Below, one piece after another: positions 60,055 to 64,000 of a stretch of 64,000 bases of DNA; position 1 is the stretch's first letter, and each line of letters opens with the position of its first letter. The DNA is from Escherichia coli (GTDB lineage: Bacteria > Pseudomonadota > Gammaproteobacteria > Enterobacterales > Enterobacteriaceae), in NCBI RefSeq assembly GCF_048403405.1, contig NZ_CP183129.1. The stretch is one strand, 5' to 3'. The notes below the pieces were generated by a model. It saw only the letters and a program-made list of their open reading frames with translations, made no database searches and was not told where the DNA came from. The position numbers and the translations under genes were made by a program.

Positions 60055-61122
60055 ATGGATAAGAGTAAGCGCCATCTGGCGTGGTGGGTTGTCGGGTTAC
60101 TGGCGGTGGCTGCCGTCGTGGCGTGGTGGCTGTTGCGCCCGGCAGGTGTGCCGGAAGGCTTTGCCGTCAGTAATGGGCGCATTGAAGCGACGGAAGTGGA
60201 TATCGCCAGCAAAATTGCCGGGCGTATCGATACCATTCTGGTGAAAGAAGGCCAGTTTGTTCGCGAAGGCGAAGTGTTAGCGAAGATGGATACTCGCGTG
60301 TTGCAGGAGCAGCGACTGGAAGCCATCGCGCAAATCAAAGAAGCGCAAAGCACCGTTGCTGCCGCGCAGGCTTTGCTGGAGCAACGGCAAAGCGAAACTC
60401 GCGCCGCACAGTCGCTGGTCAATCAACGCCAGGCCGAACTGGACTCCGTGGCTAAACGTCATACGCGTTCCCGCTCGCTTGCCCAACGTGGAGCTATTTC
60501 TGCGCAACAGTTGGATGACGACCGCGCCGCCGCTGAGAGCGCCCGAGCTGCGCTGGAATCAGCAAAAGCCCAGGTTTCTGCTTCTAAAGCCGCTATAGAG
60601 GCGGCACGCACCAATATCATTCAGGCGCAAACCCGCGTCGAAGCCGCGCAAGCCACTGAACGGCGCATTGCCGCAGATATCGATGACAGCGAACTGAAAG
60701 CCCCGCGTGACGGACGCGTGCAGTATCGGGTTGCCGAGCCAGGCGAAGTGCTGGCAGCAGGCGGTCGGGTACTGAATATGGTCGATCTCAGCGACGTCTA
60801 TATGACCTTCTTCCTGCCAACCGAACAGGCGGGCACGCTGAAACTGGGCGGTGAAGCCCGGCTGATCCTCGATGCCGCGCCAGATCTGCGTATTCCTGCA
60901 ACCATCAGTTTTGTCGCCAGCGTCGCCCAGTTCACGCCAAAAACCGTCGAAACCAGCGATGAACGGCTGAAACTGATGTTCCGTGTCAAAGCGCGTATCC
61001 CACCGGAATTACTCCAGCAGCATCTGGAATATGTCAAAACCGGTTTGCCGGGCGTAGCGTGGGTGCGGGTGAATGAAGAACTTCCGTGGCCTGAAGACCT
61101 GGTGGTGAGGTTGCCGCAATGA
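60055..61122 (+). CDS. yhiI: HlyD-family membrane fusion protein
   Basis: 355 aa; N-terminal TM anchor, long coiled-coil region; stop overlaps the rbbA start. Confidence 0.88.
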
Positions 61123-63854
61123 CGCATCTGGAACTGGTTCCCGTCCCGCCTGTCGCGCAACTGGCGGGCGTGAGCCAGCATTATGGAAAAACCGTTGCGC
61201 TGAACAATATCACTCTCGATATTCCGGCCCGCTGCATGGTTGGGCTGATTGGTCCGGATGGCGTCGGGAAGTCGAGTTTATTGTCATTGATTTCCGGTGC
61301 TCGTGTCATTGAGCAGGGCAATGTGATGGTGCTGGGCGGCGATATGCGCGATCCGAAGCATCGCCGTGACGTCTGCCCGCGCATCGCCTGGATGCCGCAG
61401 GGGCTGGGTAAAAACCTCTACCACACCTTGTCGGTGTATGAAAACGTCGATTTTTTCGCCCGCCTGTTCGGTCACGACAAAGCGGAGCGGGAAGTGCGAA
61501 TTAATGAGCTGCTGACCAGCACCGGGTTAGCACCGTTTCGCGATCGTCCGGCAGGGAAACTCTCCGGCGGGATGAAGCAAAAACTTGGGCTGTGCTGTGC
61601 GTTAATCCACGACCCGGAACTGTTGATTCTTGATGAGCCAACAACGGGGGTTGACCCGCTCTCTCGCGCCCAGTTCTGGGATCTGATCGACAGTATTCGC
61701 CAGCGGCAGAGCAATATGAGCGTGCTGGTCGCCACCGCCTACATGGAAGAGGCTGAACGCTTCGACTGGCTGGTAGCGATGAATGCCGGAGAAGTGCTGG
61801 CAACTGGCAGCGCCGAAGAGTTGCGGCAGCAAACGCAAAGCGCCACGCTGGAAGAAGCATTTATAAATCTGTTACCGCAAGCACAACGCCAGGCGCATCA
61901 GGCGGTAGTGATCCCACCGTATCAACCTGAAAACGCAGAGATTGCCATCGAAGCGCGCGATCTGACCATGCGTTTTGGTTCCTTCGTTGCCGTTGATCAC
62001 GTCAATTTCCGCATTCCACGCGGGGAGATTTTTGGTTTCCTCGGTTCGAACGGCTGCGGTAAATCCACCACCATGAAAATGCTTACCGGACTGCTGCCCG
62101 CCAGCGAAGGTGAGGCATGGCTGTTCGGGCAACCGGTTGATCCAAAAGATATCGATACTCGCCGTCGGGTGGGCTATATGTCGCAGGCGTTTTCGCTCTA
62201 TAACGAACTCACCGTGCGGCAAAACCTGGAGTTACATGCCCGTTTGTTTCACATCCCGGAAGCGGAAATTCCCGCGCGAGTGGCTGAAATGAGCGAGCGG
62301 TTTAAGCTCAACGACGTTGAAGATGTATTGCCTGAGTCATTACCGCTCGGCATTCGCCAGCGGCTTTCGCTGGCGGTGGCGGTGATTCATCGCCCGGAAA
62401 TGTTAATCCTCGATGAACCTACTTCTGGTGTCGATCCGGTGGCGAGGGATATGTTCTGGCAGTTGATGGTGGATCTCTCGCGTCAGGACAAAGTGACCAT
62501 TTTTATCTCCACCCACTTTATGAACGAAGCGGAACGCTGCGACCGTATCTCCCTGATGCACGCCGGAAAAGTGCTCGCCAGCGGTACACCGCAGGAACTG
62601 GTTGAGAAACGCGGATCTGCCAGTCTCGAAGAGGCATTTATCGCCTATTTGCAGGAAGCGGCAGGGCAGAGCAACGAAGCCGAAGCGCCGCCCGTGGTAC
62701 ATGACACTACCCACGCGCCACGTCAGGGATTCAGCCTGCGCCGTCTGTTTAGCTACAGCCGCCGCGAAGCGCTGGAACTGCGACGCGATCCGGTACGTTC
62801 GACGCTGGCGCTGATGGGAACGGTGATCCTGATGCTGATAATGGGTTACGGCATCAGTATGGATGTGGAAAACCTGCGCTTTGCGGTGCTCGACCGCGAC
62901 CAGACCGTCAGTAGCCAGGCGTGGACGCTCAATCTCTCCGGTTCCCGTTACTTTATCGAACAGCCGCCGCTCACCAGTTATGACGAGCTTGATCGCCGGA
63001 TGCGTGCGGGCGATATCACGGTGGCGATTGAGATCCCACCCAATTTCGGGCGCGATATCGCGCGTGGTACGCCTGTGGAACTCGGTGTCTGGATCGACGG
63101 TGCGATGCCCAGTCGTGCCGAAACGGTAAAAGGTTACGTGCAGGCTATGCACCAGAGCTGGCTACAGGATGTGGCGAGCCGACAATCCACACCCTCCAGC
63201 CAAAGCGGGCTGATGAACATTGAGACGCGCTATCGCTATAACCCGGACGTAAAAAGCCTGCCAGCGATTGTTCCGGCGGTGATCCCGCTTCTGCTGATGA
63301 TGATCCCGTCAATGCTAAGCGCCCTTAGCGTGGTGCGGGAAAAAGAGTTGGGGTCGATTATCAACCTTTACGTGACTCCCACCACCCGTAGCGAATTTTT
63401 GCTTGGCAAACAGCTACCGTACATCGCGCTGGGGATGCTGAACTTTTTCCTGCTCTGCGGCCTGTCGGTGTTTGTGTTTGGCGTACCGCATAAAGGCAGT
63501 TTCCTGACGCTCACCCTGGCGGCGCTGCTGTATATCATCATCGCCACCGGAATGGGGCTGCTGATCTCCACCTTTATGAAAAGCCAGATTGCCGCTATTT
63601 TCGGTACGGCGATTATCACGTTGATCCCGGCGACACAGTTTTCCGGGATGATTGATCCGGTAGCTTCGCTGGAAGGTCCAGGACGCTGGATCGGCGAGGT
63701 TTACCCGACCAGTCATTTTCTGACTATTGCCCGCGGGACGTTCTCGAAGGCGCTGGATTTGACTGATTTGTGGCAACTTTTTATCCCGTTGCTGATAGCC
63801 ATCCCGCTGGTGATGGGCTTAAGCATCCTGCTGCTGAAAAAACAGGAGGGATGA
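61119..63854 (+). CDS. rbbA: Ribosome-associated ATPase RbbA (tandem ABC ATPase domains fused to an ABC-2 permease domain)
   Basis: 911 aa; two Walker A motifs ([18 protein letters not shown]), two ABC signatures ([16 protein letters not shown]), C-terminal TM domain. Confidence 0.92.
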
Positions 63855-64000
63855 TGCGCCATTTACGCAATATTTTTAATCTGGGTATCAAAGAGTTGCG
63901 CAGTTTGCTCGGTGATAAAGCGATGCTGACGCTGATTGTCTTCTCGTTTACGGTGTCGGTGTATTCGTCAGCGACCGTTACGCCAGGATCGTTGAACCTC
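63851..64000 (+). CDS. yhhJ: ABC-2 family permease YhhJ (5' part; runs off the window)
   Basis: ATG overlapping the rbbA stop; [23 protein letters not shown]... with the start of a TM segment. Confidence 0.8.

Follow-up and report, generated by a model that had tools for sequence, protein, structure and literature searches.

Several described transport systems share part of their design with the product of the yhiI-rbbA-yhhJ locus of Escherichia coli. The CecR-regulated ABC efflux system YbhGFSR is built in the same order, i.e., an adaptor, a double-NBD ATPase, and two different ABC-2 permeases. For YbhFSR, two publications report drug and cation substrates (PMC7190983; PMC8277102), whereas the literature that we searched yielded neither substrate reports nor transport or structural studies of yhiI-rbbA-yhhJ. 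MacAB-TolC is, like the system discussed here, an ABC pump whose HlyD-family adaptor is anchored by a TM helix, and in E. coli neither locus has an outer-membrane gene linked to it. In EmrAB-TolC, the adaptor EmrA partners an MFS transporter, whereas the partner of YhiI would be an ABC transporter. Finally, insect ABCH-9C and human ABCA1/3/4/7, which are type V exporters with an extracytoplasmic domain, and KpsMT-KpsE also bear comparison. ABCH-9C and the ABCA proteins are eukaryotic lipid exporters and KpsMT-KpsE is a capsule exporter, in which KpsMT works with a periplasmic adaptor, as we propose for yhiI-rbbA-yhhJ. None of these exporters, however, displays the split found in RbbA and YhhJ (i.e., NBD-NBD-TMD plus a separate TMD).

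We analyzed a window of 64,000 nucleotides of E. coli DNA (NCBI RefSeq assembly GCF_048403405.1, contig NZ_CP183129.1), the end of which carries these genes on the + strand. The locus is an already known and annotated E. coli operon and, since it is annotated in every E. coli genome, the map is unchanged. What we propose is that yhiY, yhiI, rbbA, and yhhJ probably form one transcription unit encoding an adaptor-dependent, envelope-spanning exporter of the ABC-2 (type V) class. The yhiI ORF (60055-61122, 355 aa) encodes an inner-membrane-anchored periplasmic adaptor, or membrane fusion protein; rbbA (61119-63854) encodes 911 aa; and yhhJ, encoding a second, YbhR-like ABC-2 permease, starts at 63854 and is cut by the window end at 64000, so that 49 of its 374 codons are present. 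The ORF coordinates, the Pfam assignments, and the junction sequences all agree with the gene identities and tight junctions recognized in an earlier, sequence-only reading. At the yhiI/rbbA junction (GCAATGACG), the rbbA ATG (61119-61121) and the yhiI TGA (61120-61122) form the 4-nt ATGA overlap that this reading had placed there. At the rbbA/yhhJ junction (AGGAGGGATGATGCGC), two in-frame ATGs, at 63851 and 63854, abut the rbbA TGA (63852-63854). The overlap had been assigned to 63851-63854 and this ATGA is physically there, but RefSeq (for an identical strain) and K-12 both start yhhJ at the second ATG, which gives a 1-nt TGATG overlap. The spacing between the Shine-Dalgarno sequence AGGAGG (63844-63849) and the start codon is only 1 nt for the first ATG, but 4 nt for the second. 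Because both the annotated start and the ribosome-binding-site spacing favor 63854, the overlap is likely of 1 nt and not 4.

Start/stop overlaps by themselves are frequent in operons. It is rather the conservation of these junctions that exceeds chance: of 74 orthologous loci from several phyla, 53 have the yhiI/rbbA overlap of 4 nt and 66 keep the rbbA/yhhJ junction between −4 and +3 nt. Because the junctions are conserved, translational coupling along yhiI-rbbA-yhhJ is a reasonable inference, and the 4-nt and 1-nt arrangements would favor coupled and roughly stoichiometric translation. In favor of one transcription unit, a consensus scan of the + strand detected nothing promoter-like within yhiI or rbbA.

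Pfam places YhiI in the HlyD family (HlyD_3, HlyD_D23, and Biotin_lipoyl_2), and its AF2 model (pLDDT 90) presents a TM helix (residues 2-26), an alpha-hairpin (81-144/150-211), and lipoyl and beta-barrel domains, with no membrane-proximal domain. The top structural match of this model is EmrA in EmrAB-TolC (E 1e-22), followed by MacA. EmrA has in common with YhiI the N-terminal TM anchor, the long hairpin, the lipoyl and beta-barrel domains, and the lack of a membrane-proximal domain, at a sequence identity of about 18%.

RbbA belongs to the NCBIfam equivalog NF033858 (ABC2_perm_RbbA), with 1596 bits for a cut-off of 1050 and model positions 1-908 of 909 covered. Pfam recognizes two ABC_tran stretches and an ABC2_membrane_3 domain (residues 569-903), hence an NBD-NBD-ABC-2 permease architecture: NBD1 (residues 1-262; 61119-61904), NBD2 (residues 270-515; 61926-62663), and a YbhS-like permease domain of the ABC-2 type (residues 531-911; 62709-63854), all on the + strand. 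The two NBDs had been described as complete. There are indeed two ABC_tran domains, but one of the composite ATP sites carries non-canonical motifs. NBD1 has canonical Walker A and B motifs and an LSGGM signature, with Tyr208 replacing the switch His; NBD2 has canonical Walker A and B motifs and His466, with LPLGI as its signature instead of LSGGQ. In a motif table of 81 orthologues, Y208, LSGGM, and H466 are each present in 81/81 and P409 and G411 are invariant, so that every RbbA sequence combines one non-canonical and one canonical ATP site. The NBDs are nearest in sequence to those of the ABCA, ABCG, and DrrA exporters.

To study YhhJ, we used the full 374-aa protein of the identical strain. 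Its AF2 model (pLDDT 82) comprises TM1, a periplasmic domain of about 130 aa, and TM2-6. With Pfam hits to ABC2_membrane and ABC2_membrane_3 and six TM helices, the transporter fits the ABC-2/type V exporter fold of the ABCA, ABCG, and Wzm-class permeases. Foldseek matches it to ABCH-9C (3e-11), NosY, ABCA3/4, ABCG25, and KpsM. Thus, ABCH-9C, the ABCA proteins, and KpsM are among its top fold matches, at an identity of only 10-20%. Searched by sequence against the PDB, RbbA, its permease domain alone, YhiI, and YhhJ gave no close relative of solved structure. A MacB/FtsX (type VII) affiliation was also considered and is ruled out by the absence of an FtsX Pfam hit and of any MacB/FtsX match among the 50 best fold matches. 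MacB is an FtsX-type protein with 4 TM helices per protomer that forms a homodimer, whereas YhhJ and the RbbA permease are predicted to form an ABC-2, type V heterodimer. A review places YbhFSR under MacB (PMC8277102); for the paralogous yhiI-rbbA-yhhJ, this filing is not borne out.

The paralogy with ybhGFSR is collinear, i.e., YhiI with YbhG (30% identity), the N-terminal half of RbbA with YbhF (40-41%), the RbbA permease with YbhS (32%), and YhhJ with YbhR (24%, E 3e-30). YbhF also displays the NBD asymmetry of RbbA: its NBD1 has Tyr where the switch His is expected, and its NBD2 signature is LPLG. The likeness has its limits, since identity is only 24-41% and the ATPase and the first permease form a single polypeptide in RbbA, unlike in YbhGFSR. 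On the whole, an HlyD/MFP adaptor is encoded together with its transporter, as in tripartite ABC pumps, and the full set of two NBDs and two permease domains is there (two NBDs and one ABC-2 permease in RbbA, one ABC-2 permease in YhhJ). The earlier proposal of a tripartite-type ABC exporter is thus upheld by the ybhGFSR paralogy, the EmrA/MacA-like YhiI, the type V fold of YhhJ, and a TolC-family gene found in 22 orthologous loci.

These last loci come from the comparison across bacteria. The pump locus is core in E. coli (5413 of 5426 complete genomes). We compared 80 loci, drawn from Alpha-, Beta-, Gamma-, and Deltaproteobacteria, Verrucomicrobia, and Planctomycetes; the three genes stand in the same order in 74 of them, and contig ends cut the trio in the other 6. 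The adaptor adjoins the transporter in all 74 complete loci, and pump identity across phyla is about 65-70%. In the 22 loci, the immediate upstream neighbor, on the same strand, belongs to the TolC family (PF02321); in 12 of them, this gene overlaps the yhiI start by 4 nt. About two thirds of the orthologous loci have no nearby outer-membrane gene, and none was seen in the E. coli, Salmonella, or Citrobacter loci; the use of TolC in E. coli is therefore an assumption. Upstream TetR genes occur in only 5 orthologous loci, and no recurrent family was found downstream of yhhJ in 70 loci, where the most frequent, LysR, accounts for 6 of 136 ORFs. The conserved trio and the upstream TolC-family genes support an adaptor-dependent, envelope-spanning type V exporter and disfavor the "ribosome-bound ATPase" label.

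In E. coli, the locus has a uORF/Rho leader and no adjoining TetR regulator, unlike the CecR-regulated YbhGFSR. A consensus scan identified a sigma-70 promoter at 59693-59721 (+ strand), with ATAGACA, a 16-nt spacer, and the extended −10 TGTTACTAT. This site is identical to the constitutive promoter published for yhiI-rbbA-yhhJ, TAGACA-16-TACTAT (PMC3946193), and the motif is kept upstream of yhiI in E. albertii, Citrobacter, Pseudocitrobacter, Kluyvera, Salmonella, Klebsiella, and Entomohabitans. The scan totals are at chance level (10 promoters found for 8.3 expected, and 6 terminators for 6.3); we used only the site matching the published promoter and disregarded internal terminator-like sites. 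Counted from the K-12 transcript start of Adams et al., the 5′ untranslated leader (59728-60054, + strand) has a length of about 327 nt; the primer for cloning the yhiI 5′ UTR matches 59728-59753 with 1 mismatch. The leader gave no match to Rfam at a permissive threshold, and its fold stability is not unusual compared with shuffles (z = 0.31). Between the promoter and the conserved leader lies a lineage-specific segment of 104 nt (59722-59825, + strand), confined to E. coli with the island of DUF4049 genes and carried by 4282 of 5426 genomes. Aligned pairwise with an E. coli allele that lacks the island, it shows up as one gap. A simple insertion fits this segment incompletely, because the promoter is located upstream of it and was not displaced by it.

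Inside the leader, yhiY (59879-59992, + strand) is a 37-codon upstream ORF, MMTTLLPVFTKPSPLALNALRAGRICRFLLIPDGRIR*, annotated in RefSeq and in K-12; ribosome profiling served to assign both its start site and its translation (bioRxiv 10.1101/511675). Escherichia, Salmonella, and Pseudocitrobacter share its N-terminus, MMTTLLP, and its C-terminus, LIP(D/E/N)GxxR-stop. In Citrobacter the frame is shifted, and in Klebsiella and Kluyvera no more than MMTT-stop is left of the ORF. The leader's most C-rich, G-poor stretch (59868-59965) falls within yhiY. An RNAalifold consensus of 9 enterobacterial sequences contains a 9-bp hairpin (59986-60006, + strand) whose 5′ arm holds the yhiY stop codon. Among these 9 related sequences, the share of paired cells is 96% and drops to 25-45% on sliding the partners, and 3 of the 9 pairs show compensatory changes. 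Two mapped, Rho-dependent RNA 3′ ends delimit the interval 59990-60012 (+ strand), at −65 and −43 from the yhiI start. They correspond to the K-12 Term-seq ends 3630667 and 3630645 (minus strand), flagged "uORF", the −43 end being marked Rho-dependent (PMC7815308 supplement), and were transferred via the K-12 annotation, in which the yhiY-yhiI spacing of 62 nt is identical. A yhiI fusion is increased more than 2-fold in rho R66S, and yhiY-yhiI is only a uORF attenuator candidate in that study (Adams et al., PMC7815308). The sequence-only reading contained none of these leader features, i.e., the promoter, yhiY, the hairpin, and the Rho 3′ ends. The uORF-dependent Rho attenuators tnaC-tnaAB and mdtU-mdtJI likewise have a translated short leader ORF with Rho-dependent 3′ ends just downstream; unlike them, yhiY-yhiI is a candidate without a known ligand.

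The transcription unit also bears on a suggestion made from the sequence, that the pump acts with YhiM and with the adjacent DUF4049 proteins YhiL and YhiJ. These genes and yhiM do adjoin the pump, and yhiL and yhiJ lie on the same strand in the window. However, separate promoters, which were part of what had been named as refuting a shared function, have been published: the pump has its own sigma-70 promoter, and that of yhiJ is separate and H-NS-associated (PMC3946193). The DUF4049 pair is an AT-rich accessory island, with 31-39% GC against 52-60% for the pump genes, mostly 90-95% identity between strains against 95-99%, and a patchy distribution (4283 of 5426 complete E. coli genomes, absent from about 21%) that contrasts with the near-constant presence of the pump. 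In island-less strains such as FDAARGOS_536, yhiM is directly followed by yhiY-yhiI, and yhiL is a pseudogene in K-12. Outside Escherichia, no DUF4049 homologue or yhiM was found beside the trio in the loci with enough upstream sequence, including Salmonella and Citrobacter. A joint function is extremely improbable, and the DUF4049 tie can be abandoned.

Two other explanations concern the machine itself. RbbA could mainly be a ribosome-bound ATPase that helps to release deacyl-tRNA from the E site, its transporter-like neighbors and C-terminal domain being secondary. The gene name and the RefSeq product carry this older ribosome biochemistry, a conflict of annotation that the sequence-only reading had not raised. 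Soluble, C-terminally truncated RbbA was reported to bind the ribosomal E site and to raise in vitro translation by 1.2-2.1 fold, with yields of 0.6 to 2.1 fold in reconstituted translation, but this work used RbbA without its membrane domain (PMC12096078). On the contrary, the ABC-2 permease is fused to the ATPase in 81/81 orthologues, RbbA lies between an adaptor and a second permease wherever the contig permits, its NBDs are closest to those of exporters, and RbbA-mCherry is distributed over the membrane (PMC6788730). Moreover, image concerns led in 2025 to the retraction of a key paper linking RbbA to YhjD, ribosomes, and respiration. A primary role on the ribosome thus seems quite improbable to us. 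An ABC-F translation factor such as EttA, Uup, YbiT, or YheS is excluded by the constant permease fusion, by the absence of an ABC_tran_Xtn hit (Pfam finds no ABC-F linker PF12848 in RbbA), and by an inter-NBD gap of only about 25 residues. The pump could also stop short of the outer membrane, as an inner-membrane/periplasmic extractor or mechanotransducer (like LolCDE or FtsEX) or as a flippase with another role for its adaptor. In favor of this explanation, many loci have no outer-membrane gene nearby, and the permeases of closest solved fold (ABCH, ABCA, and NosY) operate without a trans-envelope duct. Nevertheless, MacAB and EmrAB of E. coli have no linked outer-membrane gene, yet use TolC. 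The long helical hairpin of YhiI is of the kind that EmrA and MacA use for tip-to-tip TolC docking, and the TolC-family genes joined to the operon in 22 loci also point to the outer membrane. We thus consider a machine confined to the inner membrane and periplasm unlikely.

In the envelope-spanning exporter that we favor, expression would start from the operon's own sigma-70 promoter and would be damped by Rho-dependent termination at the end of translated yhiY. YhiI, anchored by its single TM helix and equipped with a helical hairpin of about 60 residues per arm, would sit as a sleeve on the periplasmic parts of both permeases and dock to an outer-membrane channel. This channel would presumably be TolC in E. 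coli and, in many other bacteria, a TolC-family protein dedicated to the pump. Since RbbA would bring both ATPase domains and one permease domain, and YhhJ the second permease domain, one RbbA and one YhhJ would make a complete, asymmetric transporter. Its only canonical ATP site would combine the NBD2 Walker motifs and His466 with LSGGM of NBD1; the other (NBD1 Walker motifs, Tyr208, and LPLG of NBD2) is probably regulatory or slow-hydrolysing. Against this asymmetry, both NBDs retain the Walker B glutamate, and ATP might therefore be hydrolysed at both sites.

As for the cargo, our guess is that it may be hydrophobic or lipid-like, because lipids or lipid-linked molecules are what the transporters of closest solved fold carry. 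The literature gives indirect hints, none of which names a cargo: in EHEC, yhiI is induced in vivo; there is a note on biofilms; a microcin C GWAS picked out a SNP in rbbA; and paraquat evolution yielded a large deletion. A more speculative scenario, which we hold as rather unlikely, is that yhiY is a sensing leader peptide whose conserved ends, with the stop-codon hairpin, gate Rho termination before yhiI in response to the pump cargo, and that the pump exports an endogenous lipid-like envelope molecule rather than drugs. The lipid-like part is suggested by the ABCH/ABCA-like fold, the one degenerate ATP site, and the identity kept across phyla. If true, a yhiY-yhiI reporter would provide a direct screen for the missing substrate.

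In conclusion, RbbA is still used and cited as a ribosomal factor, while its genomic context across phyla points to a membrane exporter. The TolC-family link and the invariant one-sided degeneracy of the ATP sites allow concrete and cheap experiments on a widely conserved pump, and the yhiY/Rho leader may serve as a reporter to find what this pump carries.

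The 4.3 kb at 59690-64000 are 100% identical to several clinical strains in a genome comparison and are found in 5413 of the 5426 complete E. coli genomes (at least 95% identity over at least 80% of the length); the window is E. coli chromosome. In the ORF list, yhiI lies at 60055-61122 (+) and rbbA at 61119-63854 (+), and yhhJ is cut by the window end, so that its full 374 residues were taken from L001, a strain identical to the window. Pfam assigns HlyD-family domains to YhiI and, to RbbA, two ABC_tran stretches and an ABC2_membrane_3 domain at residues 569-903; RbbA also reaches 1596 bits against its own NCBIfam equivalog (cut-off 1050). 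The sequence-only reading had described two overlapping gene junctions. The ATGA overlap between yhiI and rbbA is present at 61119-61122, in GCAATGACG. At the rbbA/yhhJ junction, AGGAGGGATGATGCGC, stop and start do abut, and the proposed overlap requires a three-base correction. Indeed, the rbbA stop is TGA at 63852-63854, and in-frame yhhJ ATGs occur at 63851 and 63854. Since RefSeq starts yhhJ at the second ATG, in both the identical strain and K-12, the overlap is likely a single base, at 63854. The second ATG is also favoured by its spacing from AGGAGG (4 nt, versus 1 nt for the first).

A lone start/stop overlap is commonplace in operons. An RbbA search with one genome per species retained 80 loci, spanning Alpha-, Beta-, Gamma- and Deltaproteobacteria, Verrucomicrobia, and Planctomycetes. 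The order adaptor, fused RbbA, YhhJ is found in 74 of them, the remaining six being truncated by contig ends. With alignments to the E. coli proteins used to pick the junction starts, the 4-nt yhiI/rbbA overlap occurs in 53 of the 74 loci and an rbbA/yhhJ junction of -4 to +3 nt in 66, the 1-nt form being present in all eight nearest enterobacterial loci (L003-L010, from Escherichia, Citrobacter, Pseudocitrobacter, and Kluyvera). Tight junctions are thus a family trait, from which coupled translation of the three genes may fairly be inferred. We also observed that the orthologues of loci L011-L082 differ little in their identity to E. coli RbbA: the best aligned segment gives around 65-76% all the way from Proteus to Alphaproteobacteria, Verrucomicrobia, and Planctomycetes. 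So high a value is unusual for a transporter and indicates strong constraint, horizontal spread, or both.

By sequence comparison, yhiI-rbbA-yhhJ is a collinear paralogue of E. coli ybhGFSR: YhiI corresponds to YbhG (30% identity), the N-terminal half of RbbA to YbhF, NBD to NBD (40-41%), the RbbA permease to YbhS (32%), and YhhJ to YbhR (24%, E 3e-30). RbbA is, in effect, YbhF joined to a YbhS-like permease. In two metagenome-assembled genomes, one of Desulfuromonadales (L026, 12014-17392) and one of Pseudomonadota (L066, 216-5354), a split ybhGFSR-type cluster (adaptor, double-NBD ATPase, two permeases) directly adjoins a fused yhiI-rbbA-yhhJ-type cluster; both paralogues can therefore occur in tandem.

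PDB sequence searches returned no close relative with a solved structure for RbbA, its permease, YhiI, or YhhJ; the RbbA NBDs are closest to ABCA1/3/4/7 and to an insect ABCH transporter (deposited as 'ABCG23-like'). The AlphaFold model of YhhJ (pLDDT 82) shows TM1, a periplasmic domain of about 130 residues, and TM2-6, and its top Foldseek matches are the insect ceramide exporter ABCH-9C (3e-11), NosY, ABCA3/4/1/7, ABCG25, and KpsM. Neither MacB nor FtsX appears among the 50 best fold matches, which rules out a MacB-type fold for YhhJ and assigns the permeases to the ABC-2 type V fold. The YhiI model (pLDDT 90) comprises a single TM helix, a two-helix hairpin with about 60 residues per helix, and lipoyl and beta-barrel domains; it lacks a membrane-proximal domain and is closest to EmrA in the EmrAB-TolC structure (1e-22), MacA coming next.

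When the two ORFs before yhiI were surveyed with Pfam at each locus, PF02321 (outer-membrane efflux protein) was by far the commonest family, with 22 loci. Each of the 22 genes immediately precedes yhiI in the same orientation, 12 of them with a 4-nt overlap of the yhiI start. No recurrent family follows yhhJ across the loci surveyed. The conserved unit is therefore (TolC-like)-adaptor-RbbA-YhhJ, and this linkage is the best available evidence that the system would form an envelope-spanning pump. No channel gene is linked to the E. coli locus, whose pump would, on the model of MacAB and EmrAB, use TolC.

The ATP sites were examined in an alignment of 81 RbbA sequences, where both NBDs retain the Walker A lysine and the Walker B Asp-Glu. 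In NBD1, the signature is LSGGM and the switch histidine position is Tyr208 (81/81 each); in NBD2, His466 is kept in 81/81 and the signature reads L-P-L-G-x, with Pro409 and Gly411 invariant. The ATP sites of an ABC dimer are composite: one NBD contributes its Walker motifs and switch loop, and the partner NBD its signature. Tyr208 and LPLG therefore share the same site. RbbA has one canonical and one non-canonical ATP site, as do many heterodimeric exporters; the functional meaning of this asymmetry is inferred. Because YbhF shows the same pattern, the asymmetry predates the split of the two paralogues.

The name RbbA derives from biochemistry performed with a soluble fragment. That the protein acts primarily on the ribosome appears very improbable: Pfam finds no ABC-F linker domain in it, and the permease is fused to the ATPase in every one of the 81 sequences. 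Effects of 0.6-2.1-fold were obtained in vitro in 2025 using a form devoid of the membrane domain, because the full-length protein was unstable (PMC12096078); RbbA-mCherry is spread over the membrane (PMC6788730), and a 2011 paper tying RbbA to YhjD, ribosomes, and respiration was retracted in 2025. RbbA may moonlight. The earlier reading is partly supported: paralogy, folds, and TolC-family linkage favour the tripartite-type ABC exporter that it proposed, and the suggested tie to the DUF4049 genes and yhiM finds no support.

Indeed, the DUF4049 island (yhiL and yhiJ, 56132-59689) is an AT-rich accessory island, with 31-39% GC over its genes versus 52-60% over the pump genes and a break around 59,700-60,000. 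Of 5426 complete E. coli genomes, 4283 contain it and about 1127 carry an island-less allele, as in FDAARGOS_536 (yhiM, yhiY, yhiI, rbbA, yhhJ, nikR). Salmonella enterica and S. bongori have pitA, yhiN, the leader, and yhiI, without yhiM or DUF4049 genes, and Citrobacter, Klebsiella, and Entomohabitans have other neighbours. Moreover, the promoter-like match at 59693-59721 is exactly the published constitutive yhiI-rbbA-yhhJ promoter, TAGACA-16-TACTAT, and yhiJ is served by another promoter, which is listed with H-NS (PMC3946193). The GC break, the island-less genomes, the Salmonella loci, and the separate promoters go most of the way towards refuting a shared function on the terms that the sequence-only reading had itself set. 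yhiL is intact here and a pseudogene in K-12. Identity to the window is mostly 90-95% for copies of the island, versus 95-99% for the pump, the island being much more divergent between strains than its flanks. Downstream of yhhJ, the identical strain carries transposase remnants and an Rhs/immunity-protein graveyard (L001, 12479-18311, beyond the window) and an island-less strain nikR-nikEDCBA; both operon flanks are thus variable.

The promoter motif ATAGACA-N16-TGTTA(C/G)TAT is kept before yhiI in eight other genera. In island-bearing E. coli it directly follows the yhiJ stop, with 104 extra nt before the conserved leader (59693-59825); in island-less E. coli and other genera it abuts the leader. 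Both arrangements share an identical 17-nt promoter core, and some of the 104-nt segment is similar to what precedes the promoter in strains lacking the island. The rearrangement therefore does not fully fit a simple insertion.

The leader contains elements that the sequence-only reading had missed. yhiY (59879-59992, +) is a 37-codon ORF annotated in RefSeq and K-12, its translation and start having been assigned by ribosome profiling (bioRxiv 10.1101/511675). RNA 3' ends map at -65 and -43 from yhiI, a site flagged as a uORF case; the -43 end is marked Rho-dependent, and yhiI fusion activity is >2-fold higher in rho R66S (Adams et al., PMC7815308). These ends correspond to 59990, where the yhiY stop codon begins, and to 60012. 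A further 3' end inside yhiI (K-12 position 3630055, with a high Rho score in the Term-seq supplement of the same study) falls at 60602, yhiI +547.

Escherichia, Salmonella, and Pseudocitrobacter have kept both ends of the peptide, MMTTLLP and LIP(D/E/N)GxxR-stop, with a variable middle and length; yhiY is frame-shifted in Citrobacter, and Klebsiella and Kluyvera retain only MMTT-stop. A 9-bp hairpin (59986-60006) includes the stop codon of yhiY; its pairing across nine species is 96%, against 25-45% with slid partners, with compensatory changes at three pairs in this small sample of nine related sequences. The most C-rich, G-poor stretch of the leader falls within yhiY and would fit a ribosome-covered Rho loading site. 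The leader matches no Rfam family, and its fold has no unusual stability. A second small ORF (59842-59910, MSMRVSFTARNADDDNITTRFH-stop), without an obvious Shine-Dalgarno sequence, runs across the start of yhiY in a different frame, inside a near-invariant nucleotide block; in Citrobacter, its frame, not that of yhiY, continues into the conserved FLLIPDGISR-stop ending. RNAalifold also pairs 60013-60020 (UAACACGC) with 60044-60051 (GCGGGUCG), a pairing that would mask the probable ribosome-binding site of yhiI. Since there is hardly any variation on either side, covariation speaks neither for nor against it; E. coli has one of the pairs broken.

The yhiI-rbbA-yhhJ system is known already; the conservation of the yhiY peptide ends, the stop-codon hairpin, and the C-rich placement are new here. 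The conserved hairpin, the TolC-family linkage, and the one-sided ATP-site degeneracy are modest additions that point to direct experiments.
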